From the IMG/VR virus record IMGVR_UViG_3300042317_001497: 64,000 nucleotides of DNA; one strand, written 5' to 3'. The translations under genes were made by a program, and so were the position numbers. Of the stretch, positions 32,789 to 60,800 are shown piece by piece. Within the stretch, counting starts at the first letter, position 1, and each line of letters begins with the position of its first letter. Source of the DNA: a virus. The notes under the pieces are model-generated. The model was given only the letters and a program-made list of their open reading frames with translations. It did no database searches and had not been told where the DNA came from.

Positions 32789-33702
32789 TGAAAAGAAAAA
32801 ATAATATTAAATTATTGCCATATATTAGAGAAGATATTTATGGGTCGGTTGATAAAGAACAACATTATGGTTGGGAAATTAATAAATTTGATATTAGGAA
32901 TCAATGGAATTATTCAACTGGTAGGGGTGTGGTGGTAGCTGTTATAGATACTGGATGCGATTTTAATCATATTGATATTAAAGACAATATAATACAAGGA
33001 AAAAACTTTGTTGAGATTAATAAAGATCCTATGGATTTTAATGGACATGGAACCCATGTGGCCGGAACCATAGCCGCAATAAATAATGGTAAAGGAATAG
33101 TTGGTGTTGCTCCAGAATCAAAGATAATGCCAGTCAAAGCTTTGGATAATAGTGGGTCTGGTAGCTCAGATAATATAGTCAAAGCTATTATCTGGTCAGC
33201 AGATAATAAAGCTGATATTATTACTATGTCTTTGGGTAGTCCAGTCCCATCTAAAGCTATTGAAAATGCAATTAACTATGCAGCATCAAAAGGTACTATT
33301 ATTTTTTGTGCGGCTGGTAATGCAGGGGAAGCTACTGATGTTATGTATCCTGCAAAATTTAATAATACTATAGCTATCGGAGCAATAGACGAGAATCTAA
33401 ATAGAACTAGTTTTACATGTAGTGGGGATACATTAGATTTTTTAGCGCCAGGACATAATATTATTAGTTGTGTACCAAATAATGGATATGCCTCTATGAG
33501 TGGAACGAGTATGAGTAATCCATTTGCTGTTGGTTGTGCTTCTCTATTATTGAGTTATAACAAAAAAATCAAGAAATATGAATTAAATAATACTAAAAAT
33601 TATATAGATATATTTAAATCTAAATCCAAACCACTAGCAAATCCCAAATACTCTGGTATTCATAGATATGAAGGATATGGTATTATGTATCCTATTTTTT
33701 AG
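32788..33702 (+). CDS. subtilisin-like (S8) serine protease
   Basis: VAVIDTG, HGTHVAG, AAGN, SGTSMS motifs. Confidence 0.95.
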   Translation: MKRKNNIKLLPYIREDIYGSVDKEQHYGWEINKFDIRNQWNYSTGRGVVVAVIDTGCDFNHIDIKDNIIQGKNFVEINKDPMDFNGHGTHVAGTIAAINNGKGIVGVAPESKIMPVKALDNSGSGSSDNIVKAIIWSADNKADIITMSLGSPVPSKAIENAINYAASKGTIIFCAAGNAGEATDVMYPAKFNNTIAIGAIDENLNRTSFTCSGDTLDFLAPGHNIISCVPNNGYASMSGTSMSNPFAVGCASLLLSYNKKIKKYELNNTKNYIDIFKSKSKPLANPKYSGIHRYEGYGIMYPIF

Positions 33703-35087
33703 TTAATCCACTCTACTTCTGTTCCGAAAGATTTAATCTGTTCTGTTATGTTAGTGGCTTCTTTTTTATATTGCGACATATGAAGACCGTGCCATTCTAT
33801 CCATATCTTTTTTATGTTGCTGCTCCATTTATTTTTTAATAATACAGATTTTAATACTTCATACTCTGACCATTCAATATCTATTTTTAGATATATATTT
33901 TGAGAACCGTCAAACATACTAAGTAAATCTGTTATATCTATAGATTCTACTATTTCTGAGGAGAAATAATCTGTATATCCCTTGCCTTCGCAGGTCTCCT
34001 CTAATAAAGACCCCTGATTTTTACCATCTTCACCATGCATATTAAATATTACCCTGCCAGTTCTTTTCCATATTGCTTTTTTATATAAATATATATTTAA
34101 ATGATTTAGTTGTTCCACAAATAATTTTGTATTAACCTTGGGATTAGGTTCGAAACAGTAAATATCCCAGCTCTCATCAATATTTAATCTGTCTATAAAT
34201 TTTCTTAAACCTTGACACTCATGTGTACCAAGATCTATAAAGATATTTTTAGTATCGTTTCTATTTTGAAATAAGTTACTGCTATCCTCTTTAAAGATTT
34301 TGAAATATGTTCTCCAATCACATTTAATTAAATTATATTGAGATTTCTTTTTTAAATAAGTAATGTCTAGAATTTTTTCATCGCTACCTATAAACTTTTG
34401 GTCTATGCACTGTTCTATAGTCTCATGAAATTCTTTGGCAAAAGAGTCAATAATATTTGAAGGTACAAAAAATGCTGTTCCTTGTATGAACCTTATTTGT
34501 GATAGAGCGTGGTATTCGTTATTTGGTATTATAATATTTTTACTATGACTGAAAAAAGTAATATTAGCATTATTTAATTCATTAACTTTAGAGAGAGAAG
34601 GCCATGTTTGCCTACTGTATTCTGATATATTATTTCTTAATCCCCCAGCATCGGCCCATATTAGTAAATCATTATCAAAATAATTTTTGTGATGAGCATC
34701 CTGTAAAAAACTTAATTTATTAAACATAATAATATTATACAGAGGCTTGCTCATTTCTGGTACAAATCTATCTGTTTTAGATACAAAGTCATCAGAAAAC
34801 ATTAATGAATTAAGCTTTTTATAATATTTTTGATAGCATTCAAGTTCTTCTAGTGGAATAGTGATTAACTTAGTCCGATCAAAAGAAGGGTCAAATTCTT
34901 TTCTAAAATTTTCTATTTTATTTTTAAATTTTTCTTCAGTATATATAACTATATTAGCATCTAAAGATAGTGTATTTTTCATCCAGAATAAATAAGTATT
35001 ATATGCTAAATTATAAGCATCCCATGAATCTCTGCCAATATCATATAAAGCAGTTATTATTACTGGATTTTTTATAACCATTCCCAT
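33699..35087 (-). CDS. HtrL/YibB (WlaTC)-like glycosyltransferase fused to an FkbM-like methyltransferase
   Basis: ITALYDIGR, KLSFL, WADAG N-terminal part; C-terminal FIDLG, YCFEPN, LKIDIEWSE. Confidence 0.75.
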   Translation of the reverse strand: MGMVIKNPVIITALYDIGRDSWDAYNLAYNTYLFWMKNTLSLDANIVIYTEEKFKNKIENFRKEFDPSFDRTKLITIPLEELECYQKYYKKLNSLMFSDDFVSKTDRFVPEMSKPLYNIIMFNKLSFLQDAHHKNYFDNDLLIWADAGGLRNNISEYSRQTWPSLSKVNELNNANITFFSHSKNIIIPNNEYHALSQIRFIQGTAFFVPSNIIDSFAKEFHETIEQCIDQKFIGSDEKILDITYLKKKSQYNLIKCDWRTYFKIFKEDSSNLFQNRNDTKNIFIDLGTHECQGLRKFIDRLNIDESWDIYCFEPNPKVNTKLFVEQLNHLNIYLYKKAIWKRTGRVIFNMHGEDGKNQGSLLEETCEGKGYTDYFSSEIVESIDITDLLSMFDGSQNIYLKIDIEWSEYEVLKSVLLKNKWSSNIKKIWIEWHGLHMSQYKKEATNITEQIKSFGTEVEWIN

Positions 35088-35851
35088 GTGAACTGAATTC
35101 CTTTATGAAGAAGCTGGCAGTCTATGTTTTTATCTATAAAATAATTATTAAACTCATCCTTCATAGAGGATACTGTGAATCCTGCTGATGCAAGAGATGT
35201 TGGAACAAAACCTTCTGAATAACCGTAAAAATTGTTATTATTTAAATCTAGTAAATATTTCATAGCACGATTAGAAAATCTAACTATAGGAAAGAAAGAT
35301 CCAATATGAATATCTATGCTTTTGAAATTATCTCCTGGTCCTGGACACATATGTAACCAATTTCCATGTGATCCAGACATTCTATTATTAATAACACTAA
35401 TCCTAGGGAGGTTGGTATAATTTTCTTTTTTAAAAGCTTGTATAGCTATAAAGTCATCATTATACTCGTTGTACTCATTTAAAAAATCTTTCAGATTACC
35501 TGTAAAATCCACATCGTCATCAAAAAACCAGTAATAGTCATAATTAGGATTACTAATATAGAATACTAGCATTCTGAAATGAGCATAAAAGTATTTAGGA
35601 TTTTGATGATTCCCCCATCTATGTTTCAGATTAATAGGTCTATTAAAATTATATTTATTAAAATCATCATTGTTATATAAACAAATTTGAGAATCATATT
35701 TATTATGTATAGTATTTTTGTCTATATTATTTTGATTATCAAATAATACAAAAAAATTTTTTCCAAAATGAGATGAGAATTTTTTGATTAAAGTATTTCC
35801 ATCTCCATGAAAAGTTCTGTCATATGAACTCATAACTATAGGATTATTCAT
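35072..35851 (-). CDS. putative GT-A glycosyltransferase
   Basis: YDYYWFFDDDV DxD motif; cassette context. Confidence 0.6.
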   Translation of the reverse strand: MNNPIVMSSYDRTFHGDGNTLIKKFSSHFGKNFFVLFDNQNNIDKNTIHNKYDSQICLYNNDDFNKYNFNRPINLKHRWGNHQNPKYFYAHFRMLVFYISNPNYDYYWFFDDDVDFTGNLKDFLNEYNEYNDDFIAIQAFKKENYTNLPRISVINNRMSGSHGNWLHMCPGPGDNFKSIDIHIGSFFPIVRFSNRAMKYLLDLNNNNFYGYSEGFVPTSLASAGFTVSSMKDEFNNYFIDKNIDCQLLHKGIQFTWEWL

Positions 35852-36659
35852 ATAATACCGTTTTTAGTGTTTGATGCCATTCAGGAATTCTATTAAATTG
35901 ATGTACTATATCATATATATCATTATTTTTTGATATAACTACCCTATTTTTTATTTTAGGTATACCATATTTTATATTATTTCTAAAACCCCAAGCATCA
36001 AAAAAAGAGGTAGGACCAGCAACAGCACAATGCATAGCCCACGCATCATCAAGAGTAAATATTTTTAATTTAGGAATTTCATTATTATATACCATAACAA
36101 TCAAAGCTGCTTGATCTTTAATATCATGATTATTATTACTATTTTCACATAGTTCAAACATTCTTTTATATAGATTAATTAATGATAGTCTTTTTCCTGC
36201 TATTACTCCAGAATTAATAACCTCATAATTTTTACATTTGTTAATTTCTTGCGGAAATAATTTATTGATATTGTCATAATTCCAAGGCTCATGACAAATA
36301 TCTAAACCTTCTCCTGATACAAAGATATCAAAATTATTAGTATCTAATTTAGAAAAAGGATCTGATTGGAAAATAACGTCAAATACATCAGTAGATAATA
36401 ATATATCATAATTACATTCTGTTAAGTAATTATGTATATAGTATAATCGTTTATGATTAATTTGATGAGTATAATCTACATTATAATATTTACAAATAAT
36501 ATTTAGATCATTACAAAAATTTATATCTTCGTTGGTGGCATTAGCAACCAATAAAACTATATCATGATCACAAAACTTTTTAAAACTCTTTATCCATAGA
36601 TCTATTTTTTCTTTATGTACAATAACATTGTTACAAAAGCCTATCAAAGCTTTTTTCAT
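35844..36659 (-). CDS. putative GT-A glycosyltransferase
   Basis: LSTDVFDVIFQSDPF, INSGVIAG, DQAAL, IVHQFNR. Confidence 0.7.
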   Translation of the reverse strand: MKKALIGFCNNVIVHKEKIDLWIKSFKKFCDHDIVLLVANATNEDINFCNDLNIICKYYNVDYTHQINHKRLYYIHNYLTECNYDILLSTDVFDVIFQSDPFSKLDTNNFDIFVSGEGLDICHEPWNYDNINKLFPQEINKCKNYEVINSGVIAGKRLSLINLYKRMFELCENSNNNHDIKDQAALIVMVYNNEIPKLKIFTLDDAWAMHCAVAGPTSFFDAWGFRNNIKYGIPKIKNRVVISKNNDIYDIVHQFNRIPEWHQTLKTVLYE

Positions 36660-37909
36660 AGAGAACCCTCTATTTTATCACACCAGCCCAGCGATTTACT
36701 GTGAGGCCAAACTACCCATTTAGATGGTCTCTTATCTGTTTGGAAAGTCCTCCATATTTTACAATAATTATCAGGATCATTCTTCATTCTTAATATTTCA
36801 CCTTCATCACAATCCTGTCTATATAAATCTGTATCATTAGAGTCTTTAAAAACTACACACCAGAAGTCATAATCATTATGAGGAACACTAGAATAAGACA
36901 CATCTATACAGTGTTTGAATATTTTACTCAAAGATCTATCAAAATCTTCATCAGAAGCATCACATAATGGGTCTGGAGGAGCTTTATGGTCTAACACATT
37001 TTGTGTAACACTTCTTCTAGAAAAACTCAATCCTGAATATTTTTCATATTCTCTTAATGTACGAACAGATCCAAATCCATAAATACCAAAATCAATATCT
37101 TGTTTTTCATCGTCCATACCAAAAAGAATTCTATTCCTTCTGTGGCTTTCTTCGTTTCTTTTGTGCCAAACTTTATCGTCATCCCATTGTTTAGTTCGTC
37201 CTTTTCTGGTATATTCATGCCAACAGACTATTTTATGTGGATGAAATAGATCATATCCATGTGTGAATGCTCTAGCTGCTATACTTATTTCTTCTCCATG
37301 AAAATAATAATTAGGATCATGCTGCACTTCTTTAGAAAATTCACCTATAGAAAAAGCAAAATGAGCGCTATAGAATCGAGCTTTAAGAGGATTTGTAGAA
37401 TCATCCCAACTATCGAATGATGCAGGTAGAAAAAATACGGCCCCTTCTGGAATAAACCTGTCAAAATTCATTTTCCAAGGAATAGTAACTCTTTCTTGTG
37501 GGTCATTTTCCGGATTAAAACTAGGTATATATGAAGTTATAAGAGGTTTTTCATGTCCCTTTAACTGTAATGATAATAACATTTCTATTAAAATTTCATC
37601 CCAACCTTCTACGAATCTGTGATGAGAATCTAATTGCAGAGTATATTTTTCTCCATCATAAAGCTGCTGAACTTTATTCCTAGCCCAACAAACACCCTTT
37701 GATTCTCTATAGTCAATATCTAAAATTCTAAATCTATTATCATTATTAAATTCTTCTAATGTGTCCCATTCGTCTTCCGTGTTATGTTGCCAAGCTATGC
37801 CTATCCTTAGATTTTCGGGGTATTTGCATTTGGCTACGCAATCTTTTAGAGTTGATAGTAATTGGGGGTCTCTGTAAGACGCGATCTGTATAAAGATTGT
37901 GTTAGACAT
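36656..37909 (-). CDS. GT60-like (Skp1/GNT1-type) alpha-GlcNAc transferase
   Basis: IFIQIASYRD, GVCWAR, YTLQLDSHHRF..WD, FHGEEIS.AAR..T.G.D, WHEY. Confidence 0.85.
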   Translation of the reverse strand: MSNTIFIQIASYRDPQLLSTLKDCVAKCKYPENLRIGIAWQHNTEDEWDTLEEFNNDNRFRILDIDYRESKGVCWARNKVQQLYDGEKYTLQLDSHHRFVEGWDEILIEMLLSLQLKGHEKPLITSYIPSFNPENDPQERVTIPWKMNFDRFIPEGAVFFLPASFDSWDDSTNPLKARFYSAHFAFSIGEFSKEVQHDPNYYFHGEEISIAARAFTHGYDLFHPHKIVCWHEYTRKGRTKQWDDDKVWHKRNEESHRRNRILFGMDDEKQDIDFGIYGFGSVRTLREYEKYSGLSFSRRSVTQNVLDHKAPPDPLCDASDEDFDRSLSKIFKHCIDVSYSSVPHNDYDFWCVVFKDSNDTDLYRQDCDEGEILRMKNDPDNYCKIWRTFQTDKRPSKWVVWPHSKSLGWCDKIEGSL

Positions 37910-38258: not shown

Positions 38259-38266
38259 TTTATTTT

Positions 38267-39585: not shown

Positions 39586-40539
39586 ATGAACAATTCTCTT
39601 ATAGAAGATATAATAAATACACAATTCCAGCATTTAAAAAAGTATAATACATTAGACGTTAATATGCTTGGTAAAGAAGATATTTTATTAAGCGTAGAAG
39701 ATAACAGTTTTCGTATTCAAGCTAATCAAGAACTAAATCACGGATTGTCTTATAGGCTAGAAATACTACTACCATATTTTGCTAACTTTATTTCAATATA
39801 TAAGCCGTTGAATTTCAAAATTATATTAGGCTTGGGGGACATAGTTAATAAAGAATATAACACTGATATTCCGGTAATTTGTTTATCTAAAGAAAAACAT
39901 ATTAATGGGATACTTATTCCCAATATAGATTTTTTTACAGGCTTGGTCAAAGTCTATCTCGATGAATCATCTGGAGACACGGAATATTCTAGTAAAAAAA
40001 ATGAGTCTTTATTTATAGGCTCATCAACTGGTAATTTTGAAAATAATATCAGAGCTCAATATTGTATAAAATGTTTAAATAAAAATAATCATCATGGATA
40101 TATTAATAATTTATGTCAAAATACTAGAGAATTATGGTCTAATAAATACCCTAGTATAGAACAAACTATTCATGATAGTATGTCTATTAAAAATCAATTA
40201 CAATATAAACTCCTAATTAATATAGATGGAAACACATGTTGTTGGAGCAGGCTTTACTGGCAAATGAATTCTAATTCGGTTCCTATTTATATTAATAGAA
40301 ATACAAATGATATTCAGTTTTTTGATTATTACGACCACTCGAATGGTTTTATTAGTTGTTCTTTTGATGAAGCATTCGATATTATGGATCAATTATTAAC
40401 CACAGAGAATAATAAAATTATTGATGAAATAAATATAAAAGGTAAAGAAGATTGTCAAAAAATGTTCACAGACTATACAAAAAGCCCCAAAGTATTCCTA
40501 CAAAATGTTATTAATAACATATTACAAAAATTTTTATGA
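39586..40539 (+). CDS. GT90/CAP10-like glycosyltransferase
   Basis: LFIGSSTG, YKLLINIDGNTCCWSRLYWQM. Confidence 0.7.
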   Translation: MNNSLIEDIINTQFQHLKKYNTLDVNMLGKEDILLSVEDNSFRIQANQELNHGLSYRLEILLPYFANFISIYKPLNFKIILGLGDIVNKEYNTDIPVICLSKEKHINGILIPNIDFFTGLVKVYLDESSGDTEYSSKKNESLFIGSSTGNFENNIRAQYCIKCLNKNNHHGYINNLCQNTRELWSNKYPSIEQTIHDSMSIKNQLQYKLLINIDGNTCCWSRLYWQMNSNSVPIYINRNTNDIQFFDYYDHSNGFISCSFDEAFDIMDQLLTTENNKIIDEINIKGKEDCQKMFTDYTKSPKVFLQNVINNILQKFL

Positions 40540-40937
40540 ACTCTCATCAAGAAATTATAAATCAATTACAAATAATTGCTAACGAAATAGATAATAATAA
40601 ACACCAAAGAATATTATTTTGCTTACCTGAAAGTGCTGGTGATATTTTCTTATCTACTAGTTTATTAAGTAGTTTATCGCAAGCTTATCCTAATTTTAAT
40701 ATATATTTTGCTTGCAAACCCGAATATAAAAATATTCTAAAAAATAATCCTTATATATATAAAACTATATCTTATTTACCTATTATGGAAAATCAAGCAT
40801 ATATGGAAGGCAGCGGAGAATGGAAAGGATTATTTGATATATCTATTATGGTTTCAATTTTAACACAAAGACATATAGCATATCTACACAATGGCATAGG
40901 CAAAATAATGTTTAATTTAAAAGGGAATAATTTCTAA
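40536..40937 (+). CDS. GT9 (heptosyltransferase-like) N-terminal half
   Basis: SAGDIFLSTSLLSSL...ILKNNPYI. Confidence 0.7.
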   Translation: MNSHQEIINQLQIIANEIDNNKHQRILFCLPESAGDIFLSTSLLSSLSQAYPNFNIYFACKPEYKNILKNNPYIYKTISYLPIMENQAYMEGSGEWKGLFDISIMVSILTQRHIAYLHNGIGKIMFNLKGNNF

Positions 40938-41482
40938 TGCATTTAATAGAAACTTATGCTATAGTATCTGGTTGTCAAATAAATAAACCATTTATCCACG
41001 AAGAACCTCTAGAGCTGCCTACAAAAAAATATATCACTTTTCATACATATAATCCTAAAGGAGCCGGAAGACAATATAGATCTTGGGATAAAGTTATAAA
41101 TCTACTTAGACAAAATGCCAAATTTGATTATGAACTTATCCAGATAGGTGGTATTTCTGACCATAGACAAAATATCAATATTTCATATCTTGGTAAAACC
41201 ACATATAATTCTCTGGCCTATCTTATCAAACACTCGTCTATGCATGTTGGTTTTGATAGCTTACCTGTTCACCTAGCTTCACACTATCAGAAGAAAATAG
41301 TCTCTATATATGCCCATTATGCCAACAATAGTAAGCCGTATTTCTCTAAAAATAAAGATATTACTATTATAGAACCAGATTTTAGTAAAGTTAAACCTAC
41401 TTTCGCACATGAAGATCCATTTGATTTAATTAATACTATACCTCCAGAAAAGATATACAGTAGCATCATAAATCTTATTTAA
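40937..41482 (+). CDS. GT9 C-terminal half
   Basis: SWDKVI, IQIG, LAYLIKHSSMHVGFDSLPVHLA. Confidence 0.75.
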   Translation: MHLIETYAIVSGCQINKPFIHEEPLELPTKKYITFHTYNPKGAGRQYRSWDKVINLLRQNAKFDYELIQIGGISDHRQNINISYLGKTTYNSLAYLIKHSSMHVGFDSLPVHLASHYQKKIVSIYAHYANNSKPYFSKNKDITIIEPDFSKVKPTFAHEDPFDLINTIPPEKIYSSIINLI

Positions 41483-41484: not shown

Positions 41485-42114
41485 ATGAACTATTATTGTC
41501 TTCACCACTCCCCTGCTACAGAAAGAAAAAAATATCTTATAGATTTATTTAATGAACAAAAAATATCTGTAAAATGGATAGAAGATTATTTGCCAGAAAG
41601 CTATGAGGTTATTAATTATCCGACTGTAGAATGTGAACACGCCGCAGACAAAACTGGAAAACTAAATAAACAAGAAATTTCTCTATGCTTAAAACACGTT
41701 AAAGCTTTAGAAGAAATAATAAAGATTAATAACTATGGAGTAATTTTTGAAGACGATATCTCAAATCCTGATTTTTTGTTAAAAGAATTATTACCAATAT
41801 TCTTAGAAAAATTTGAGAATATCAAAGGAGATATATTATGGATAGGTTCTATTGACACTTTACATATAGTACCTGATGATACACTAGATATAGTCGTTCA
41901 TTCTTCATCAGAAACTAAATCAAGAGCGTCCCATTGTTATGTTATACATTCAGATATTTGTAAAAAAGTTCTAAACTATTATAGAGATATCAAAGCCCCA
42001 TCAGATTGGCAATGGAATTATACAATAGATAATTTTCAATTAAAAAGTTGTTGGAGTTATCCTCATATATTACAAAGATCCGAGCAAGGCTCTATTAAAT
42101 CTTTGCTAAGATAG
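41485..42114 (+). CDS. GT25-like glycosyltransferase
   Basis: ERKK, EISLCLKH, VIFEDD, SHCYVI. Confidence 0.75.
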   Translation: MNYYCLHHSPATERKKYLIDLFNEQKISVKWIEDYLPESYEVINYPTVECEHAADKTGKLNKQEISLCLKHVKALEEIIKINNYGVIFEDDISNPDFLLKELLPIFLEKFENIKGDILWIGSIDTLHIVPDDTLDIVVHSSSETKSRASHCYVIHSDICKKVLNYYRDIKAPSDWQWNYTIDNFQLKSCWSYPHILQRSEQGSIKSLLR

Positions 42115-42205: not shown

Positions 42206-42760
42206 ATGTTTGGAGTGGAGAAATCTGACCATCTTGGAGGATATATTTGCGGAGGAGATATTAATACTTCTGCTACTGAGATATGGGACCAGATGATAGA
42301 TAGTGGAATAAAATCATTACTGGACATAGGATGCGGAGAGGGACATTCTACTAAATATTTTTATAACAAAGGAATTGATGTTTTAGGTATTGAGGGTGGA
42401 CAAAACGCTATTAATAACAGTCCAATCAAAGATAAAATTATTTTACATGATTATACAAAAGGTCCATTTATTCCAGAAAAAAAATTTGACGCTATATGGT
42501 GTTGTGAGTTTGTTGAGCATGTATATGAAGAGTTTATAGAAAATTTTCTATCTACATTTGATTATACTAATACCATATATATGACCCATGCTACTCCTGG
42601 ACAGGGAGGATATCATCATGTAAATGAACAACCACAAGAATATTGGATCCATCATATTTGTAAAAGAGGTTTTATATATGATAAAAATTTATCTCTATAT
42701 CTGAGAAGTATTACCAAGGCAAAATGGGTTAAGAACACTTTACTGGTTTTTAAAAAATAA
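42206..42760 (+). CDS. class I SAM-dependent methyltransferase
   Basis: LLDIGCGEG, CCEFVEH, GYHHVNEQ. Confidence 0.85.
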   Translation: MFGVEKSDHLGGYICGGDINTSATEIWDQMIDSGIKSLLDIGCGEGHSTKYFYNKGIDVLGIEGGQNAINNSPIKDKIILHDYTKGPFIPEKKFDAIWCCEFVEHVYEEFIENFLSTFDYTNTIYMTHATPGQGGYHHVNEQPQEYWIHHICKRGFIYDKNLSLYLRSITKAKWVKNTLLVFKK

Positions 42761-42931: not shown

Positions 42932-43462
42932 ATGCAGAGACTTAGGAATCAACGAGTTTATTTAGCTGGTGCTATGGATAGAGTACCAGATAGAGGCACA
43001 ACATGGAGGGATAATATAACTCCATTTTTAGAAGAAATGGGTATTATAGTATTCAATCCTATTACCAAGCCTACATCAACAGGTCTAGAAGACCAAGACT
43101 CTCATAATGTCAAGGTAAAACTAAAACAGCAAGAGAGATACGAAGAACTATCAGAAATGATGAAAGTTATTCGTAGAGTAGATTTAAGACTTGTTGATAT
43201 TAGTGATTTTTTAATAGTTAATCTCAATTTAGATATACATCCTTGTGGTACATACGAAGAAATTTTTACTGCTAATAGATGCAAAAAACCTATTCTTATA
43301 CATATGGAACAAGGGAAAAATAATGCTCCTGATTGGATTTTTGGAACCGTTCCTCACCAGATGATTTTTTCAAGATGGGACGATCTAAAATCATACCTTA
43401 TACACATAAACAAAGACGAAAATATTGAATCTTACAAAAGATGGCAATTTTTTAACGTTTAG
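42932..43462 (+). CDS. nucleoside 2-deoxyribosyltransferase-like protein
   Basis: VYLAGAM, VFNP, DLRLVDISD, CGTYEE. Confidence 0.8.
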   Translation: MQRLRNQRVYLAGAMDRVPDRGTTWRDNITPFLEEMGIIVFNPITKPTSTGLEDQDSHNVKVKLKQQERYEELSEMMKVIRRVDLRLVDISDFLIVNLNLDIHPCGTYEEIFTANRCKKPILIHMEQGKNNAPDWIFGTVPHQMIFSRWDDLKSYLIHINKDENIESYKRWQFFNV

Positions 43463-43469: not shown

Positions 43470-43670
43470 ATGCCAAAATATTATGTAAAATCTGGACAAA
43501 TAAAATATATTATACAAAGAGAGAACCACTATACAGCAATAGTTGATGGACTTAAATTATACTCAGGTAAAGGACTTTTAACTAGTATAAAAATTTGTAT
43601 AAGTGAGTCTGGATGGAATAAAAATTTTACATGCTATGATACAGATACTTTTCTAAAAGAAATACTATGA
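43470..43670 (+). CDS. hypothetical protein
   Basis: probable start MPKYYV at 43470. Confidence 0.55.
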   Translation: MPKYYVKSGQIKYIIQRENHYTAIVDGLKLYSGKGLLTSIKICISESGWNKNFTCYDTDTFLKEIL

Positions 43671-44122
43671 ATCTTGAGCACAAAACAAGACCTGACGATC
43701 CCAGGAAATTAAATTATATTCAGACCAGTTCTATTATAGTTGGGGATTCTAAGATTCATGGTAGAGGAGTTTTTGCCACCGAAAATATTGGTAAAAATGA
43801 GCTTATAGAAAGATGTCCATTAATATTAATGGAATATCGGTCTAAATATCAATTAGATCCTCAAATTTTTAATTACATGTATGCTCAACCTCCCTGTTCA
43901 TGTAAAGATTGTCAGACTCACGGATTTTTATTACATATGGCGCTAGGATACGGTATGCTATACAACCATCAAGATAAACCAAATGCTATGTGGAAATTTA
44001 ATTATAGTCAGTTATTAGCGGACGTTATTTGTGTTGAGGATATAAATAAAGGTGAAGAAATTTTTGTAAGCTATGGTAATCAGTATTTTAATGATAAAAC
44101 CAAAATTAATTTAATCAAATAA
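43667..44122 (+). CDS. SET domain protein (lysine methyltransferase-like)
   Basis: IHGRGVFATENI, YNHQDKPN, GEEIFVSYG. Confidence 0.9.
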   Translation: MNLEHKTRPDDPRKLNYIQTSSIIVGDSKIHGRGVFATENIGKNELIERCPLILMEYRSKYQLDPQIFNYMYAQPPCSCKDCQTHGFLLHMALGYGMLYNHQDKPNAMWKFNYSQLLADVICVEDINKGEEIFVSYGNQYFNDKTKINLIK

Positions 44123-44137: not shown

Positions 44138-45205
44138 ATGCAAAAAATTATAACTGATATTAAGCTGAATTTTGATGATTTGTTAATTAGACCCAAAAGA
44201 TCTAATTTGTCTAGTAGATCAGAGGTTGATATTACTAGAGAATTTCATTTTTTACATTCTCCAAGAAAAATTACAACAATTCCAATTGTAGTAGCCAATA
44301 TGGATACTACGGGTACTTTTAGCATGTCTGATGTTGTTTGTTCAGAAAAAGGCATGGTTGCTCTGCATAAGCACTACTCGACTCAACAACTAATTCAATA
44401 CTATTCTGACTCCAATAAAATTAATAAAGATTTGGTATTTTATTCTACTGGCACCACAGTATCCGATATTGAAAAATTAACATATGTTTTTAATTCTTTG
44501 AGGGATAATCGACAAGAATTACCCAATGTTTGTGTAGATGTAGCTAATGGATATAGTGAAAAATTTGTTAAAACAGTGGCACACATTAGAAAACTGTATC
44601 CCGATATTATTATTATGGCTGGTAATGTAGTAACCCCAGAAATGGTAGAAGAATTATTATTGCATGGCAAAATAGATATAGTAAAAATAGGAATAGGACC
44701 AGGATCTGTTTGTACCACAAGACTTAAAACAGGAATAGGTTATCCCCAAGCTTCTGCTATCATGGAATGTTCTGATGCGGCACACGGATTAAGTGGTCAT
44801 GTTTGTGCCGATGGAGGATGTAAGACTGTCGGAGATATTGCTAAGGCTTTTGGTTGCAATGCCGATTTTGTAATGTGCGGAGGATTTTTTGCTGGAACTG
44901 ATGAATGCGAAGGAGAATGGCAATATGATATAGAACAAAATAAAATATCATTAAAATTTTATGGAATGAGCTCCAAAGAAGCTATGCATAAACATCATAA
45001 TGGAGTTGCTCACTATAGAACAAGTGAAGGTAAGTGTGTAAGCGTACCATATAAGGGGCCTGTGATAGAAATCCTGCAAGATATTTTTGGAGGACTAAGA
45101 AGCGCTTGCACATATATCGGAGCTTCTAAAATTAAAGATTTTGGTAAAAAAACAACATTTATACTAGTCAACGACACCCATAATAGAATATATGAAAAAT
45201 CTTAA
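44138..45205 (+). CDS. guaC: GMP reductase
   Basis: ANMDTTG, DVANGY, KIGIGPGSVCTTR, ADGG, FYGMSS, SEGK, LRSACTY. Confidence 0.95.
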   Translation: MQKIITDIKLNFDDLLIRPKRSNLSSRSEVDITREFHFLHSPRKITTIPIVVANMDTTGTFSMSDVVCSEKGMVALHKHYSTQQLIQYYSDSNKINKDLVFYSTGTTVSDIEKLTYVFNSLRDNRQELPNVCVDVANGYSEKFVKTVAHIRKLYPDIIIMAGNVVTPEMVEELLLHGKIDIVKIGIGPGSVCTTRLKTGIGYPQASAIMECSDAAHGLSGHVCADGGCKTVGDIAKAFGCNADFVMCGGFFAGTDECEGEWQYDIEQNKISLKFYGMSSKEAMHKHHNGVAHYRTSEGKCVSVPYKGPVIEILQDIFGGLRSACTYIGASKIKDFGKKTTFILVNDTHNRIYEKS

Positions 45206-46241
45206 TATAAATTGTCCAATCAATCAAACAGGATACGGTATAGCATCTTTGAATATACTCAAAGAATTAAATAAAAAATATAACGTATCATATTTCCCTA
45301 TTGGAGAACCCGGAGTAACCAATCAGCTAGATTTCGATATAATTAAAAATGTATATGAAAAACAGCAATCATTCGATATTCATGCTCCATTATTAAAAAT
45401 TTGGCATCAATTTGATTTGGCTAGTCATATTGGCAAAGGATCATATTATGCTTATCCATTTTTTGAGCTGGATACTTTTAATAATATAGAAAAAAAACAT
45501 ATGAGCATACCAGATACTCTCTTTGTATCTAGCAAATGGGCGCAGTCTATAATATACAAAAATGGTATCAAAACCCCGACCAGTGTTGTTCCATTGGGTG
45601 TTGATACTGATGTTTTTAAACCAAAACCTAAAATAAATAATAATTATATTTTTCTAACCATAGGAAAATGGGAAATTAGAAAAAGTCATGATATTTTACC
45701 ACAAATTTTTAAACAAGCTTTCCCGAACGAAAAAGACGTAGAACTATGGATTCTTGCGTCAGAAAATACTAATAGTTACTCTAATAGTGAAGAGATAGCT
45801 AAGTGGAAAAAATTATATTATTATCCTAATATAAAAGTAATACCGGGAGTAAATACTCATATAGATATTGCAGATATAATATCTCAAAGTGATTGTGGAT
45901 TATATATCAGCAGAGCAGAGGGATGGAATATGGAGCTTCTTGAAACTATGGCGATGAATAAACCCGCTATAGCTACAAATTATTCTGCACATACTGAATT
46001 CTGTAATAGTGATAATTGCTATCTTATTGATATTGACAGCACAGAAGAAGCATACGACGGAAAAGCTTTTCAAGGACAAGGAAATTGGGCTAAAATAGAA
46101 AAAAAACAAATAGATCAAACTATAGATTATATGAGACATGTCTACAAAAACAGAATTAGTACTAATGAAAATGGCTTAAAAACGGCTCAAATATATTCTT
46201 GGAAAAACTCAGCCGATATAATTTCAGGGTGTATAAATTAA
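45192..46241 (+). CDS. GT4 family glycosyltransferase
   Basis: TGYG, VPLGVD, RKSHD, SRAEGWNM.LLE.MA. Confidence 0.85.
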   Translation: MKNLNINCPINQTGYGIASLNILKELNKKYNVSYFPIGEPGVTNQLDFDIIKNVYEKQQSFDIHAPLLKIWHQFDLASHIGKGSYYAYPFFELDTFNNIEKKHMSIPDTLFVSSKWAQSIIYKNGIKTPTSVVPLGVDTDVFKPKPKINNNYIFLTIGKWEIRKSHDILPQIFKQAFPNEKDVELWILASENTNSYSNSEEIAKWKKLYYYPNIKVIPGVNTHIDIADIISQSDCGLYISRAEGWNMELLETMAMNKPAIATNYSAHTEFCNSDNCYLIDIDSTEEAYDGKAFQGQGNWAKIEKKQIDQTIDYMRHVYKNRISTNENGLKTAQIYSWKNSADIISGCIN

Positions 46242-52697: not shown

Positions 52698-55600
52698 ATG
52701 CCAACGCCAACACCAACGCCAACACCCACCAGCACCCCTACTGAATGTGTTTTGAATCCCCTTACACAAGGATTGCTACCTAGAATCTCTAGTGTATCAT
52801 GTTCTAATGATGGGACAAAAATTCTAATTGCAGCTGCAACAATCTATCAGCCAGCAATATCTTTGAGTAATGATGGTGGTTTATCATGGCAGGATAAATC
52901 TTTCTCAGAACTCACCTCTATTAATAGTTCTTGTATATCAAAAGATGGCAGTACTATTTTAGGTATATTTACTTCTTCCAATAATAGTAATTGGAAAATT
53001 TATACTTCTTTGGATTTAGGAGACTCTTGGGCTTTAAAAGTATCATTACCACCAGGCTATAGTCCAGCCTGTAATGAAGGTAAAAATTCATTATGCTCTT
53101 CTCATTATGGAAATAATTTATATTGTTTATTTCGAGAGAGTACTGTCAATTATACTAATTACATATTGTATCAAAGTAGAGATAGTGGTGAGACATGGAC
53201 TACAACAACTATTTTAGGTGGTGGTAGCGGTATTCCTAATAGCGATGTTGGTAGTATATGTTGTTCTGCTGATGGTAATAAACTATTAATAACTTCATAT
53301 AATAAAGTATTTATAGGCACTTATAATGGAACCAATTTTAATTGGATCAATATAACATTAAACGATGTTGACAATACTGAAAGATTACAAGGATGCTGTA
53401 TATCTGCTGATGGTAGTAAAATGATGGTTTCTATAAGAGAACGATTTAAGCTTGGTAATAATGATCGTGGATCTTATATAAGTATTAATAGCGGACTAAC
53501 ATGGACACCTATAACAAATAGTCCGGTACCATCTGCTTCAGAATTAGTCTGTTCTGATAATTTCGAAACAATATTTGGAGTATCAGCTATTTATACGGGA
53601 CTGGGTTATATTAGTAGAGATTATGGAAATACATTTTCTAGTATTTTGTTTATTACGAGTCCAATGTTTAATAGCGTATTTATATCTTCCGATATAACTG
53701 GTGCTCATATAATTTATTTAGGAGTGAATAATTATAATGATGGAAACTATGAGACAGGGAGAGGTATTTACAGAATAGATTGTGCAGAAACAACGCCAGG
53801 ACCGACTCCTATCAGAATCACATCTACACCCACAGCAAGTCCAACCCCAACCCCAACCCCAACTCCAACTCGAACTCCAACCGAGACTCCAACCGGGACT
53901 CCAACTCCAACCCCTACCAACACCCCAACTTCAACCCCAACCCAGACGCCAACAAATACCTCTAGCCCCAGACCCACTGGGCCGTTATGTAGAAAATCTT
54001 CGTATACAATAACATTGAATGATTTAACCTCGTGTAAATTATATAGTGTAAGTTTACAGGCTAGTTATGAAAATACTCAACTGGATATTTATCCTAATGT
54101 ATTATCTTTTAAAGCTTCTGCTAATACTCAAACTATACCAGTTATTGTAGACACTAATAATGTGGATGATGCATCATATTTTATACTAGAGACAACTCTT
54201 ACAGATAGTTCTTGCGATACTCCAAAGATTAGAAATGATGTTTTGTGGTACGAGGGATGCAATAAAACTCATCAACCAACAAGTACACAAACCCCAACGC
54301 CAACTCCTACGCCGTTTGGACCAACTCCTACGCCGTTTGGACCAACACCAACGCCGTTTGGACCAACACCAACTTCTTCGTCTGAAGGAAATGAAGAAAC
54401 AGTCCATCTATCTTTTTGTTGTCCAACCCCTCCACCAACACCAAGTTATCCTCCGTGTTGCGACTGGAACGGAGAAGGATTTATTAAAATTTCTACCATA
54501 GACTGTGATAAATTTATAGCATTAACTTTTACTAAAATTAGTAATTATGTATGGATTTCTAATAATAAAACAGTTTGTGGAGATGATATAGAATTAACAG
54601 TAGCTTGCGATCCAAATATCATATATAATGGTTTATTATCATGTTCATCTAAATGGAAAATAATTAATATGAATCTACCATGCGCTACTAATTTAAGATT
54701 AACTGGGATAACACAAGCTTGTGGTTGTAATTTAGCTCCTGTTTGGTCGTTTACTGCTGATGATATAAGCGATTGTAAGTGTTGTGGTCCTACACCCACA
54801 CCAACAAATACTTCTACTCCAACGCCCACTCCAACGCCAACCTCTACACCAACAGATACTCCTACTCCTACTCCTACCCAAACAAGAAGTCCAACTCCTA
54901 CTCAAACCAGAACCCCAACCCCAACCCCAACAATGAATATAACTTATGCAAACTTTGGTGGTTATGCTATTTGGGACGGCCTTCCTAATCTGACTAGTGT
55001 TGGTACTAACGGAGGTCCTAGCTTTTATGGTACTTATGATCAAAGCGGAAACGTTTTTAACTGGAATGATGCAGATGGAACTCTGTCGAGTCTAAGAGGT
55101 GCTCGTGGAGGATCTTATGGACAAGCTGAATACCAGATGACTGGATTTTATACAGCAAATAATGCTGGGGCAGTAGGTCCACCAACCAATTTTCACGCTT
55201 ATGAATATGGATTCCGTATAGCATCATCCGTATTAAACCCAGATGATCTGCCTAATTTTGTGATGGTTGGAGATATAAACAATCCCGCAGATAGTAGACC
55301 GGCACCATTAGGATGGCAAGAAGGAGTGAATACGGGCAGAGGTAGTGTGTCATACATTTATTCTATCAATAAATATTCTGTTACTAATAATGAATATGTT
55401 GAGTTTTTAAACTCCGTTGCGACAACCGATATTTATGGATTATATAATATATTTATGAGCAATGTAAGAGGAGGTATAGAGAGATCGGGTACGGATGGAA
55501 GTTATGTCTATACTACAAAAATAAATTATGGAAATAAACCGGTTTGCTTGGTGAGTTGGTTCGACTGTGCTAGATATTGTAATTGGCTGCATAATGGTAA

Positions 55601-55871
55601 ACCCTCTGGAAGTCAAAATAATAGCACTACTGAAGATGGAGCCTATACTCTAGACGGTAGAATTACCGGAGATGCTTTAGTCAAGAATTCCGGAGCAAAG
55701 TATCATATGCCCACAGAAGACGAGTGGTACAAAGCGGCATATTATACTTCTAACAAAAACGGAAGCGGTCCTGGGTACTGGACCTATGCTACTCAGAGTG
55801 ACGATATGCCATTAAGGGTGACAGCTAGTCTTGTAGGAGATGGTCCTTTTCCAACCCCAACTCCGGTATGA
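52698..55871 (+). CDS. modular surface/fibre protein: Asp-box propeller, PT linkers, 12-Cys domain, permuted FGE-sulfatase domain
   Basis: five SxDxGxTW-type boxes; long PT runs; CCDW domain; [17 protein letters not shown] preceding the [22 protein letters not shown] half. Confidence 0.8.
54300..54362 (+). repeat. 3 x 21-bp tandem repeat (PTPTPFG)
   Basis: CCAACTCCTACGCCGTTTGGA twice plus one variant. Confidence 0.85.
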
Positions 55872-55886
55872 TAGAGATGCTTTAAT

Positions 55887-58800
55887 ATGACTAAAATAAT
55901 ATCAATTTGTTGCCCAACACCTACTCCTCCCCCTCCCCCACCTCCTTGTTGTGATTGGGACGGCAAAGGTTTTATAGAATTAAATATAGACCAATGTAGT
56001 AAATTAATACCAATAACTTTTACTAAAATTAGTAATTATATATGGACTTTTAATGGTCCAATAGACTGTGGAGATAATTTAGAATTTACAATAGCTTGTG
56101 ATAACTCTATACCATATACAAATGCTTTTTCGTGTGAATTAAAATGGAGAATTATTAAATTAAAGTTTCCTTGCGCTCTTAATGCTATTCTTACAGGCAT
56201 ATCTGTAGCTTGTAATTGTAATATGGCTCCAGTATGGTCCTTTATGGCTACGGATAATATAGACTGCAAATGCTGCTCCATAACACCTACGCCAACACCA
56301 ACCCCAACGCCAACTCAGACTTCAACGCCAACTCAGACTTACACACCAACATCAACGCCCACCAGAACGCCCACTCCTACCCCAAGCCCAACAGAAACAC
56401 CAACTTCTACGCCAACCCCAACCCCAACTTCTACGCCAACAGAAACCCCAACACCAACTTCTACGCCGACCGAAACTCCAACGCCAACACCACCAAACTG
56501 TTGTGAATGGGACGGTAATGGTTGGCTTCGTTTCAATACAGAAAATTGTAATGGTTTAATGCCAATTACTTATACAAAAACTAATAATTATACATGGACA
56601 GCTAATGGAACATTAGATTGCGGAGATTCATATAATACTACTGTTACTTGTGACCCTAATATACTCTTTACTGGACCAGAATCTTGCGCTAGCAAATGGT
56701 CGTATGAACTCAGTATTGGATGTGTACCTGATCTAGTTATTACTGGTATAATAACAGACTGTTCATGTAATACTCCTCCTATTTGGGGTTTTACAGGTAA
56801 TCTTGAAGATTGTGATTGTTGTAAGAAATTTGATTGCGTAGAAGGATTAGCTGAGAATGGAGGAGGATGCTTTAAAATTCCAGATGGAGATTTGGATAAC
56901 TGTGACGATTGCGTTGAAAGATGGACATTGTGTAATCCAGAAACCGGTTCTGTATTTATAGGATTTAGTTCTGATACGTCTTTACCAACTAGTCAGCAAG
57001 ACTGTCCAACCCCAACGCCAACCCCAACGCCAACCCCAACAGAAACACCAACGCCAACCCCAACAGAAACACCAACGCCAACCCCAACAGAGACACCAAC
57101 GCCAACCCCAACAGAAACACCAACAGAGACACCAACGCCAACCCCAACAGAGACACCAACACCAACACCAACACCAACAGGCAATCTAAGAAACACTGGA
57201 TGTTTAGAAAATGGTATTCCTGGCAATTCTGCAGTAGGCTGCGCTGAAGCTTATGTGGACGATTCAGACACTGAACAATTATCACTATATCCAGAAAGCG
57301 GACCATGCGACCCAGAATGCGTAATAAGAAATACAGGCTGCGTTGCTCAAGGATTAAATAGTCTGGGAGAAGATGATACCGAGGTTTGTGAATCCCTATA
57401 CACAGTCGATAGCACAACCTATCCCGTGCTAGGCACATGCGAAGAAAATTCTACAAATTTAGGAGCATCAGAATGTAGCAAAATATACAATTGTGATAAT
57501 GCTTCTGGCAAAACATGGAGCAGATGGGGTTCGACTAGTTCGTATGCGGAAACTGAATATGGTTTCAGTGACGAAAATGCAGTTGATCAATGTGAACTGT
57601 ATTTCGCATGTTTTTATACAGCGGGGTGTACAGACTATGGATATAGGTTGAGCGGGGGATCTGCTTGGGAATCGGGTACTCCCGGCGAAGGTCAGGAGAC
57701 AGAAATATTGCCGGGAACATGTTCAACTGGATCACCGGCTGGTCCAAATTATGATGACCACTACGTGCCTGGTCCCCATACACTTTATTGTGTAAGCGAT
57801 AACTGGTGTAATAAGGCAACATTGATACCCGAAGAAGGCGAAACAAGTCCCGTCTATCAATACCTCACCCAGCTTGGATGCGTACAAGGATATCACCGTA
57901 TAATGCTCTGGCCGTCCTCTAGGGTGCCGCCAAACGGCGATCAGGCTGCTTTCGGCTCTTTTGGCCAAATAGGGTCTTACACTTCTGCAATAGAAAATTC
58001 GTGCGATGATGGCAAATGCAAATTAAGAAATACTGGATGTGTAGAAGCCGGATTGGTGCCGCATCCAACATTGATACGCAATGATGGTGTTGTTGTGCCG
58101 CCGAACGATGTGGCCGGTTGTGATGAAGCTTATATAGATGATTTAGACGCTGAAGGATTATCGGCATATCCCAATGTTGGCCCTTGCCCAACAGACTGCA
58201 ATAGCATTTGGAGTTGCGATCCAAGCACCGGACCGGTTTTCCTGAGATACAGCACTAGTCCGCCGGACAGTTCTTTGGATGAGTACACTGAAGATCAAAT
58301 AAACGACCCCGAAACGGGCTGCATACCACGAAACACCGGATGTGTTGCTGGGGGCGTAGAAGATCCCCTTAATCCCGGCGTGACTGTAGGATGCTACTCA
58401 AGATACAGCACGGATACAATAACTTATCCCGAAACAGATTCGTGCGACCCAGAATGTGTAATGAGAAGCACAGGATGTGTTCCTCAAGGATTAAATGGTC
58501 TGGGAGAAGACGATACTCAAGTTTGTACTTCTATGTATACCACTGATATTTCCAATTATCCGTTCCCAGGGGATTGCAATAGTTACTACAGCAATTACGG
58601 AGAATGCACAAAGATATACAATTGTGATAATGCTTCTGGCAAAACATGGAGCAGATGGGGACTTGCCAATTCTTATTCTGCTACGGAATATGACGGGAAT
58701 TCTCCTTCTTGTATTGAATTTTTTACCTGTAGCCCTTCTGGCTGTACTGATAATGGATACAAATTTTCGACCTTTATCCCCGATTATCAAATGGGATCAA

Positions 58801-60800
58801 CAACACTTCCGGGCAATTGTGCAGATGGGAACCCGTCTCCTCCAGGCGGCGCCGCTGGGTATAAATGTGAGCACATGTATTTCTGTTACCCAGGACAGCC
58901 TTGCTCAGACCAAGGTTACTATGTACTTTCCGGAGGAATTACAGGTACGAACCCCGATATTGCAATAGTAGGCTTTTGTTCTGATAATGCTTGTAATTTA
59001 AGAAATACCGGATGTTTAGAAAACGGCATTCCAGACAATCCTCAAATAGGTTGCGCACAAGCTTATATAGATGACTCAAATAGCGCCGGATTATTAACAT
59101 ATCCAGAAAGCGGACCATGCGACGAAGCCTGTTTAGATCGCTGGACAAACTGCGAAGTTGAAACCGGTTCTACTAATGTCGGATTTAGTACCAACACCAG
59201 TTTGCCGACTAGCCAAGTAGCTGACTGTGCTGATCGCTGGACAAATTGTGAAGTTGAGACAGGCTCTACTAACATTGGCTATAGTACCGATACGAGCTTG
59301 CCAACTAGTCAGCAAGACTGTCCAACCCCAACCCCAACAGAAACACCAACGCCAACCCCAACGCCAACACCCACAGAAACTCCAACGCCAACCCCAACGC
59401 CAACAGGTTCATTATTAATTAATCAAAATGATAGTATTATTATAGAACCAACACAGAATACTATTAATATTAGATATAGTGGAGGACCAGATACTACAGC
59501 TTCACTAAGTACCAACGATGTATTATTTTCTATTGGAGATATAGGTGGTAATTTTGTATTTGATATTGGAGGACCACAAGAATATACATTTACTACTATT
59601 AATGAAACTCACCAATTTGTAGCAAATGGAGTGATTTTTATCGTAACATACAAAGGAACTGGAAGTCAATTATTTGATATAGATTTTGTTTTTAATCCAA
59701 CAGCAACTCCAACTCCAACAGCAACTCCAACTCCAACACCATCTCTTAATTGGCAAACATTTGGCTCGTCATACTGGTCTGCCTATCAGTCTAGCATAAA
59801 CTCTACTATTAGCACAGCTGTTGTTAATGATACATTGTCTAATGCTAGCGGATCATATCCTGGCAATAATGCTTTTATAGGAGGAGTATTGCTATCAGAC
59901 GGAACAGTATTTAGCGTTCCATTCAATAGCACATCAGCCAGACTATATAATCCTACCACAGATACTACTTCTGTTCCTGCTGGTAGCTATCCTGGTAACG
60001 GAGCATACAACGGAGGAGTATTACTCTTAGACGGCACAGTATTTTGTATTCCAAGAGAATCTACTACAGCGCGTATTTATAATCCATCTACGGATACTAC
60101 AACTACTCCTAGCGGTTCCTATCCTGGTAGTACAGCATTTTTTGGAGGAGTACTATTACCAGACGGACGAGTATTTATTGTACCTAACAATAGCACAACT
60201 GCTAGAATTTACGACCCAGCAACAAACACACTATCAACACCAGTAGGAACATATGCTGGCAACGGAGCGTTTAGAGGAGCAGTATTACTACCAGACGGAC
60301 GAGTATTCTTAGTTCCTAGCGTTAGTACCAGCGCCAGAATTTATGACCCAGTAACCAACACACTAACTACTCCTAGCGGTTCATATCCTGGAGGAAACGC
60401 TTTCCGTAGTGCAGTATTATTAGCTGATGGAACAGTATTTTGCATACCATCTAATAGTACAACTTCTCGCATATACAACCCTGTTACTGATACAGTATCT
60501 ACTCCAAACGGATCATATGCTGGCAACAGCGCATTTAACGGAGGAGTTTTGCTACCTAATGGTAAAGTATACTGCATACCATATAACAGTACCACCGCTA
60601 GAGTTTATGATCCAGTAACTAACACGTTAGCGACCCCATCCGGTACAAATTCTGGAATAAATATTTTTGCTGGCGGTGTGGTCATGTTTAACGGTAAAGT
60701 TTTCCATGTTCCAAATTCTAGCACCATAGCTAAATTATACGGAGGTAATAACGGATTTGATCCCAATATTAGTTTATCGTCATATTATAACAAATATTAA
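55887..60800 (+). CDS. giant (1637 aa) modular surface/fibre protein
   Basis: two 12-Cys domains, PT/TE linkers, repeated RNTGC and [17 protein letters not shown] modules, C-terminal 7 x 44-aa propeller. Confidence 0.8.
57005..57178 (+). repeat. tandem PT/PTET-coding repeats
   Basis: repeated CCAACGCCAACCCCAACAGA(A/G)ACA units. Confidence 0.85.
59880..60745 (+). repeat. seven 132-bp (44-aa) beta-propeller blade repeats
   Basis: [29 protein letters not shown]..PxGSYxG unit; starts at 59880 and 60012. Confidence 0.85.

Follow-up and report, generated by a model that had tools for sequence, protein, structure and literature searches.

In protists, members of glycosyltransferase (GT) family GT60 initiate mucin-type O-glycans by adding alpha-linked N-acetylglucosamine (GlcNAc) to Thr, as described for Trypanosoma cruzi and Dictyostelium (PMC8724618, PMC6939170, PMC7185993, PMC3769586), and one family member, Gnt1, is a cytoplasmic enzyme that glycosylates hydroxyproline of a single target, Skp1 (PMC6939170). 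GT60 and GT27, the family responsible for animal mucin-type glycosylation, share as their hallmark a DxH motif replacing the DxD motif of GT-A enzymes (PMC7185993), with GT60 differing from GT27 by the absence of a C-terminal ricin-like lectin domain (PMC8724618). Here, a stretch of 64,000 nucleotides from the virus listed as IMG/VR record IMGVR_UViG_3300042317_001497 (this whole stretch being referred to as the window) is considered. In the window, the open reading frame (ORF) at positions 36656-37909 (minus strand) encodes a GT60-family (PF11397) GT-A enzyme, predicted to be soluble and a candidate initiating polypeptide N-acetylhexosamine (HexNAc) transferase, and two giant ORFs, termed P0001 and P0002, encode proteins with long Pro-Thr tracts that are its candidate acceptors. 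Taken together, the evidence presented below makes it somewhat probable that the GT60 enzyme O-glycosylates such Pro-Thr tracts or linkers, probably on Thr.

The window enzyme shares with protist GT60 proteins (i.e., the Dictyostelium Golgi enzymes, the T. cruzi enzyme and Gnt1) the same Pfam family, the DxH motif and a GT-A domain that, as modeled, is closest to GT27. The candidate phage acceptors are Thr- and Pro-rich and mucin-like, as are T. cruzi mucins, and the enzyme, judging from its translation, would be soluble and cytoplasmic, like Gnt1. Unlike its protist counterparts, however, it is encoded by a phage, would work in the bacterial cytoplasm, bears some 110 additional beta-rich C-terminal residues and lies in a cassette with HtrL-like and other GT genes, with no prolyl hydroxylase having been found in the window. 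In the case of GT27, the likeness lies in the DxH motif and in the best structural match obtained, over about 260-315 residues, and GT27 enzymes act on dense Ser/Thr/Pro tracts; yet sequence identity is just 12-18%, and the phage enzyme is not a GT27 member.

Virus-encoded, host-independent glycosylation of virions involving several GTs and methyltransferases is known from giant viruses, as in the capsid glycans of chloroviruses and the fibrils of mimivirus. Those glycan gene clusters differ from the present one in serving eukaryotic hosts and in relying on other initiating enzymes and linkages. To our knowledge, only a handful of phages have been found to glycosylate proteins of their own particles. 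In mycobacteriophages Che8 and Rita, phage GTs decorate the phage's own structural proteins, with the major capsid proteins as targets (Freeman et al., 2023, cited in PMC11256854). As proposed here, phage-encoded GTs act in the bacterial cytoplasm in that system, which nonetheless involves no Pro-Thr linker logic. The enzymes concerned reportedly belong to other GT families.

With PF11397 serving as a proxy for CAZy GT60 assignment, ORF 36656-37909 matched this Pfam model ('GlcNAc') with an E value of 2.7e-74 and a score of 251.2 bits, as compared to a cut-off of 21, the best stretch covering profile positions 95-351 of 352. The same ORF matched phrog_24687 (E 2.3e-171). A sequence-only reading of this DNA had assigned the enzyme to GT60 from the motifs IASYRD, LQLDSHHRF and FHGEE..AR; all three are present in the minus-strand translation, the hidden Markov model search proved the assignment right, and each ORF named in that reading was found where it had been placed. 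The DxH motif corresponds to D94-S95-H96 within LQLDSHHRF and is invariant in all 32 sequences of an alignment of the window enzyme and 31 IMG/VR relatives sharing 58-73% identity.

An AlphaFold (AF2) model based on this 32-sequence alignment had a mean predicted local distance difference test (pLDDT) score of 90.4. When the model served as query in Foldseek, polypeptide N-acetylgalactosamine (GalNAc) transferases came first (E 1e-9), and in a structural comparison (VIA), GT27 polypeptide GalNAc-transferases occupied all of ranks 1-29, with Z scores of 18.3-21.0 and root-mean-square deviations of 3.6-4.0 Å (5.3 Å in one row) over 258-315 aligned residues. The next-best families, namely those of B4GALNT1, chondroitin polymerase and SpsA, scored Z values of at most 16.2. 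In terms of this model, the GT-A catalytic fold is thus closest to that of polypeptide HexNAc-transferases. Sequence searches of the PDB with the single protein and with the 32-sequence profile yielded nothing meaningful, and therefore no solved GT60 structure was usable. Most structural alignments ended near residues 307-332, with the approximately 110 C-terminal residues (about 300-417) comprising a beta-rich region beyond the Pfam model. Neither a signal peptide nor a membrane segment was evident in the translation.

Examination of about 109 ORFs in the window revealed Pro-Thr tracts to be limited to P0001 and P0002, both on the plus strand, confirming the earlier description of giant proteins with long Pro-Thr and PTET tracts at 52698 and 55887. 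P0001 (52698-55871; 1057 residues) contains four such tracts, totaling 149 residues (nucleotides 52698-52748, 53820-53960, 54273-54377 and 54786-54935), while P0002 (55887-60800; 1637 residues) contains four tracts totaling 191 residues and including PTET repeats (nucleotides 56274-56501, 56997-57188, 59316-59414 and 59694-59747). The eight tracts, each spanning 17-76 residues, separate folded modules. P0001 combines a BNR/sortilin-like propeller region with a Cys-rich domain at residues 589-696 and, at the C terminus, a domain resembling FGE-sulfatase (Pfam E 2.3e-13). In P0002, the Cys-rich domain is present twice, accompanied by Cys-rich modules, and the C-terminal region is made up of repeats. 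The Cys-rich domain of some 110 residues (CCDW...CKCC), for which no Pfam match was obtained, is common to the two proteins (56% identity; E 2e-36), and each of its three copies (54462-54785, 55953-56276 and 56499-56819) is flanked by Pro-Thr tracts. No obvious signal peptide was seen in the first residues of either protein.

Because the GT60 and Pro-Thr genes lie 15-23 kb apart in the window, no link between enzyme and substrate is visible in this DNA alone, and the distribution of both in related genomes was considered. In IMG/VR, 107 stretches encode close relatives of the window enzyme, and 80 of these loci, each including 10 kb to either side, were retained. ORFs containing Pro-Thr tracts accounted for 93 of the 1490 ORFs in these loci and were spread over 50 of the 80. 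A Pro-Thr gene was found immediately upstream of the GT60 gene in 17 of 79 loci, usually on the same strand and separated by a gap of 35-115 bp, and immediately downstream in none of 78. Relative to a background of 6.7% (93/1397 ORFs), the upstream adjacency has a binomial p value of 1.5e-5, which rises to 1.5e-4 once the set is dereplicated at 85% identity. Likewise, of the 83 robust Pro-Thr ORFs counted in these loci, 19 were situated within 500 bp of GT60, as compared to an expected 5.7% (p 1.5e-7). The Pro-Thr proteins adjoining GT60 bear adhesin-type domains, including RCC1 and DUF5122 propellers, Laminin_G_3, P_proprotein and DUF285, and have nothing in common except the tracts.

A second collection, for which a single genome of each prokaryotic species was scanned with a profile, comprised 78 GT60 loci on contigs of bacteria or metagenome-assembled genomes, assigned to Saprospiraceae, Cytophagaceae, Gemmatimonadaceae, Burkholderiaceae, Rhodocyclales, Magnetococcales and others. 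Here, 12 of the 25 robust Pro-Thr ORFs were situated within 500 bp of GT60, with 6.8% being expected (p 2e-8). Some of the contigs may derive from phages or prophages. The reciprocal search relied on a sample of at least 80 IMG/VR loci (73 contigs) selected only for a (PT)5 DNA pattern. A GT60 homologue was found within 10 kb in seven of the 80 loci listed, these being distributed over six of the 73 contigs, and in five of those six, the (PT)5 tract was within about 2.5 kb of GT60. The homologues include divergent ones sharing 43%, 41% and 28% identity with the window enzyme. Among the listed (PT)5 contigs, one more contained GT60 elsewhere and another was the contig of locus L061.

Co-occurrence was further considered by counting PTPTPT DNA sites in 16 whole records in which GT60 is either intact or absent. 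The seven records with an intact GT60 contained 31 (phage XacN1), 23 (Xoo-sp13), 11 (CM1), 18 (G005), 4 (G006), 4 (G007) and 1 (G008) such sites. Of the nine phages without GT60, RsoM2USA, the Xanthomonas phage XbC2, Vibrio 2.275.O, 121Q, Serratia BF, PSTCR6 and Cr-LKS4 contained none, while Phosso and Seuss contained one each. The reversed pattern, used as control, occurred in none of the 16 records. Left out of this count was the 251-kb record G001, in which the GT60 gene (locus L050, 10001-11244) is spread over two frames by at least two frameshifts and in which the single PTPTPT site equals the control count; a broken GT60 alongside so few sites agrees with the link, but this gene could be the remnant of a decayed system or an assembly error and is not counted as evidence. 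Cultured phages seldom carry GT60, a match being obtained in 4 of 50,697 records. The expectation that GT60 and Pro-Thr repeat genes travel together was thus borne out in phages and on bacterial contigs, albeit in few lineages and with most of the listed (PT)5 contigs being without GT60. Similarly, the enzyme-substrate link, while invisible in the window, draws comparative support from adjacency and co-occurrence in relatives.

Among cultured phages, XacN1 allows the closest comparison. Its GT60 protein, ORF334, shares 47.8% identity with that of the window and belongs to the closest cultured homologue group. Genes for a carbamoyltransferase, an HtrL-like protein and GT9 adjoin ORF334, the latter two also being found near GT60 in the window, and, like the window phage, XacN1 has many Pro-Thr tracts: The 31 PTPTPT sites fall in 13 genes, including ORF232-237, large genes beside the tail sheath gene, and ORF325, which lies next to genes of the baseplate wedge and has a 3313-residue product matched (E 6e-73) by a PHROG annotated as 'virion structural protein'. 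XacN1 virions yielded at least two Schiff-stained glycoprotein bands (Yoshikawa et al., 2018; PMC5852040), and the authors proposed ORF328 and ORF334 as makers of glycoproteins, mentioning PBCV-1 as a case of giant virus glycosylation (PMC5852040). The available text of that paper names neither the GT60 family, the Pro-Thr tracts nor the glycosylated proteins. XacN1 differs from the window phage in its high-GC genome and in the phylum of its host.

Within the XacN1 genome, ORF232-237 (L218, 35049-44105) are six consecutive paralogues, each with a Pro-Thr tract, and the three that were scanned all matched phrog_15511; the set looks like a diversified fiber or adhesin array. Matches of Pro-Thr proteins to phrog_15511 were rejected as a sign of homology, as it was mostly the tracts themselves that aligned.

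These observations can be assembled into a possible pathway. The GT60 enzyme would transfer HexNAc from a uridine diphosphate (UDP) sugar to polypeptide, as do its protist relatives and GT27 enzymes. The acceptor would be Thr in the Pro-Thr tracts of P0001 and P0002, modified in the host cytoplasm before lysis. Hydroxyproline, the acceptor in Skp1, receives no support here: Pfam searches with the window ORFs revealed no prolyl hydroxylase or 2-oxoglutarate-Fe(II) oxygenase, and no prolyl hydroxylase came to light among the 67 representatives covered, out of 69, of neighbor clusters present in at least four GT60 loci. Thr is therefore the likelier acceptor. The HtrL-like and GT-A enzymes encoded beside GT60, and possibly a second cluster (GT90-like, GT9, GT25 and GT4), could then extend the glycan, with FkbM-family and S-adenosylmethionine (SAM)-dependent methyltransferases capping it, such that a methylated glycan may result. 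The linkers that join the binding domains of these large, adhesin-like and probably virion-borne proteins would thereby become coated with sugar, stiff and resistant to proteases.

The genes in question lie in two groups. The sequence-only reading had listed three GT-like genes alongside GT60, all on the minus strand, two of which stand as such. The first, at 33699-35087, encodes an HtrL/YibB-like GT domain (Pfam HtrL_YibB, E 8.4e-23) fused to an FkbM-family methyltransferase (Pfam Methyltransf_21, E 2.3e-6; NCBIfam fkbM_fam, E 1.5e-14, above the cut-off), with tblastn matches in 39 of the 80 GT60 loci. The second, at 35072-35851, is considered GT-A-like on the basis of an invariant DDD motif (residues 111-113) and of an AF2 model (pLDDT 84.1) for which the top Foldseek matches were B3GNT2 and the GT domain of LH3 (E 3e-6), its Pfam match being sub-threshold only; tblastn matches were found in 11 of the 80 loci. 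The third, at 35844-36659, is a conserved partner that is just weakly HtrL-like (HtrL_YibB, E 0.0085, below the cut-off). It too was matched by tblastn in 11 of the 80 loci, and alignment by hhalign of its family with the HtrL fusion was uninformative (probability 0.4). When clusters linked by BLAST were considered by their representatives, an HtrL_YibB-type cluster was present in 71 of the 80 loci, while the other neighbors of GT60 vary and include genes for a carbamoyltransferase, FkbM, GT4, GT8, GT10, a GT7C-like protein and, in only four related loci, a HAD plus nucleotidyl-transferase protein. A near-constant HtrL partner amidst varying neighbors is in keeping with a conserved primer whose extension can be exchanged.

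As for the second group, encoded on the plus strand, six more GT or methyltransferase genes had been listed. Of these, a GT25-family enzyme (41485-42114; Pfam Glyco_transf_25, E 2.8e-7, above the cut-off), a SAM-dependent methyltransferase (42206-42760; Methyltransf_11, E 7e-9) and a GT-B group 1 enzyme of family GT4 (45192-46241; Glyco_trans_1_4, E 6e-11) were confirmed. ORF 39586-40539, without a match in Pfam or NCBIfam, is a lead to a GT90 (CAP10)-like protein through the ESM Atlas only (score 0.97; 30 of 30 matches in GT90 clusters). The nearest Atlas clusters of this ORF are mostly from Nucleocytoviricota, which hints at giant viruses and jumbo phages sharing glycosylation genes. The remaining two listed genes are halves of one heptosyltransferase-like GT9 enzyme (40536-41482): The N-terminal half (40536-40937) weakly matches positions 3-58 of RfaQ (E 7e-4) and the C-terminal half (40937-41482) matches Glyco_transf_9 (E 2.4e-7). 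The stop codon of one and the start codon of the other share a single base, and both halves are present in one related locus. The enzyme may consist of two subunits, or the split may stem from a frameshift or from faulty sequencing. Its conservation in XacN1 was considered and rejected, ORF327 being unlike the N-terminal half and ORF328 only marginally like the C-terminal half.

Several observations weigh against the proposal that the GT60 enzyme modifies Pro-Thr tracts on virion proteins. GT9, GT25, GT4 and HtrL enzymes are best known from lipopolysaccharide (LPS) cores. In the window, the GT60 and Pro-Thr genes are not only distant, as noted above, but also on opposite strands. In the relatives, adjacency is clade-biased, the 17 loci falling in 4 of 24 GT60 clades defined at 75% identity, and it loses significance when each clade is represented once (3/24; p 0.21). 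In the reciprocal sample, 67 of the 73 listed (PT)5-selected contigs had no GT60 within the 20 kb fetched. The GT60-bearing genomes among the whole records represent two or three lineages, far below sixteen independent observations, and one of them, G008, combines an intact GT60 with a single PTPTPT site. The identity of the XacN1 glycoprotein bands is not given in the available text of PMC5852040. Finally, no relatives of P0001 were found in cultured phages, P0002 gave only a weak C-terminal match to Cylindrospermopsis phage Cr-LKS4 and one related phage, and both genes are surrounded by auxiliary genes (ClpP-like, deoC-like, sigma factor, ferritin and PAP2) with no recognizable structural module.

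The last of these points bears on where P0001 and P0002 reside. The C-terminal repeat of P0002 resembles the end of g13, a 1130-residue protein encoded in the structural module of Cr-LKS4. Still, because P0001 is without relatives and P0002 is only weakly matched in cultured phages, a virion location is unproven. That both are virion fibers, as had been suggested, draws backing from relatives only, with the auxiliary genes surrounding them in the window speaking to the contrary, and is best regarded as a real but somewhat doubtful possibility. The region upstream of P0001 (50324-52682) had been a candidate head module containing a prohead protease and scaffold gene; this was weakened, given that ORF 50324 is ClpP-like and ORF 51020 is weakly deoC-like.

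The main rival to Pro-Thr glycosylation holds that the GT genes remodel host surface glycans (i.e., LPS core, O-antigen or capsule), for instance to block superinfection, with the Pro-Thr linkers being plain spacers. The GT9, GT25, GT4 and HtrL/YibB matches in the window do belong to LPS-core-type families, the PAP2 lipid phosphatase gene (47387-48031) suits an envelope-directed function, and GT clusters of jumbo phages have been read as modifiers of surface polysaccharides that stop the attachment of rivals (Iyer et al., 2021; PMC7824862). However, when the window ORFs were searched against Pfam, neither a flippase or polymerase nor a lipid-carrier priming transferase was found, and no nucleotide-sugar pathway was recognized; the structures nearest to the GT60 model, moreover, are polypeptide transferases, with any polysaccharide GT trailing by 4-5 Z units. 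Such remodeling would also leave unexplained why, in each of two independent collections, Pro-Thr genes accumulate less than 500 bp from GT60, as well as the PTPTPT co-occurrence counts. As such, we consider surface glycan remodeling to be an unlikely role for the system.

Less likely still is that GT60 targets some other protein, be it a specific phage or host one, and that it is linked to Pro-Thr genes because both occupy variable regions with structural or adhesin genes. Gnt1, itself a cytoplasmic GT60 enzyme, has Skp1 as its sole target (PMC6939170), and the distance between the GT60 and Pro-Thr genes in the window, the near absence of Pro-Thr tracts from the GT60-containing G008 and the concentration of adjacency in a few clades would all be understandable were the target elsewhere. 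Set against this, adjacency is seen again in GT60 lineages of 28-43% identity and, among the bacterial contigs, in several phyla, the tracts are all that unites the Pro-Thr proteins adjoining GT60, and the prolyl hydroxylase needed by a Skp1-type route is not in the window. Modification of phage DNA bases against restriction, in the manner of the T4 glucosyltransferases, is highly improbable: Although phage GTs classically modify DNA (PMC5852040) and genes for deoxyribosyltransferase-like, GMP reductase-like and dCMP deaminase-like proteins are nearby, the window encodes ThyX with no base hydroxymethylase being found, the GT60 fold and motif match polypeptide transferases, and the linkage to Pro-Thr genes would have no place in such a scheme.

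In searches of the literature, GT60 in combination with phage returned nothing on phage Pro-Thr glycosylation, with one sponge virome preprint listing GT60 among its CAZy hits, and PF11397 returned only a paper on a brown alga. Glycoproteins of the virion made by the phage itself were raised earlier for XacN1; the new part of Pro-Thr glycosylation by GT60 is the move of mucin-type initiation into a phage. Were it to hold, mucin-type O-glycosylation would extend from eukaryotes to bacterial viruses, the question of why Pro-Thr linkers are so common in large uncultured phages would have an answer, and glycan identity would add a layer to host recognition and to resistance to proteases and antibodies. 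The GT60 enzyme could, moreover, be put to use in Escherichia coli for glycosylating Pro-Thr tags. In its broadest form, the idea is that many phage lineages, together with bacteria that are their hosts or have these genes in common with them, run true mucin-type O-glycosylation, in which a conserved GT60 initiator acts on Pro-Thr linkers and rapidly swapping extension and capping cassettes (HtrL-like, GT8, GT10, GT25, GT90-like, and carbamoyl- and methyltransferases) provide receptor-binding fibers with a variable glycan coat, and that prokaryotic viruses are a large unrecognized reservoir, possibly the source, of GT60/GT27 polypeptide HexNAc-transferases, work on which has so far centered on protists and animals. 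This extension is offered tentatively and seems to us rather doubtful.

As to its origin, the window is AT-rich (approximately 27-43% G+C per 2-kb bin), with nearly all reading being on one strand. The presence of rIIA, rIIB and genes for an ATP-dependent DNA ligase, RuvB, a sigma factor, ThyX and a ClpP-like protease, together with numerous small ORFs without assigned function, points to a large tailed phage as the source. The IMG/VR contigs that carry the nearest GT60 homologues measure up to 334 kb, three of them being complete according to CheckV (197-238 kb), and the source is very probably an uncultured jumbo phage. ESM Atlas searches with ORF 62020-63999 returned only unlabeled clusters (scores of 0.84-0.85) and were uninformative.

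Other features, all on the plus strand, were noted in passing. Between the two groups of GT genes are found genes for a nucleoside 2-deoxyribosyltransferase-like protein (42932-43462; below the cut-off), a SET-domain protein (43667-44122; E 1.4e-13) and a GMP reductase/IMPDH-family protein (44138-45205; E 9e-68). Just 3' of the GT4 gene, a ferritin-like gene (46812-47390) overlaps that of the PAP2 lipid phosphatase. Two Methyltransf_24 proteins are encoded far from the GT clusters (14483-15049, E 1e-20; 17329-17886, E 5e-15), and ARAGORN called a transfer-messenger RNA gene with the tag peptide GVNQLALAA at 14108-14461. Lastly, the ORF at 30685-31692 encodes an actin-fold Volactin protein (PF25216; Pfam E 4.5e-62) in a run that includes genes for RuvB, an HNH endonuclease, a trypsin-like protease and an S8 subtilase, and was matched by tblastn in 11 of the 80 related loci with a median identity of 81%.

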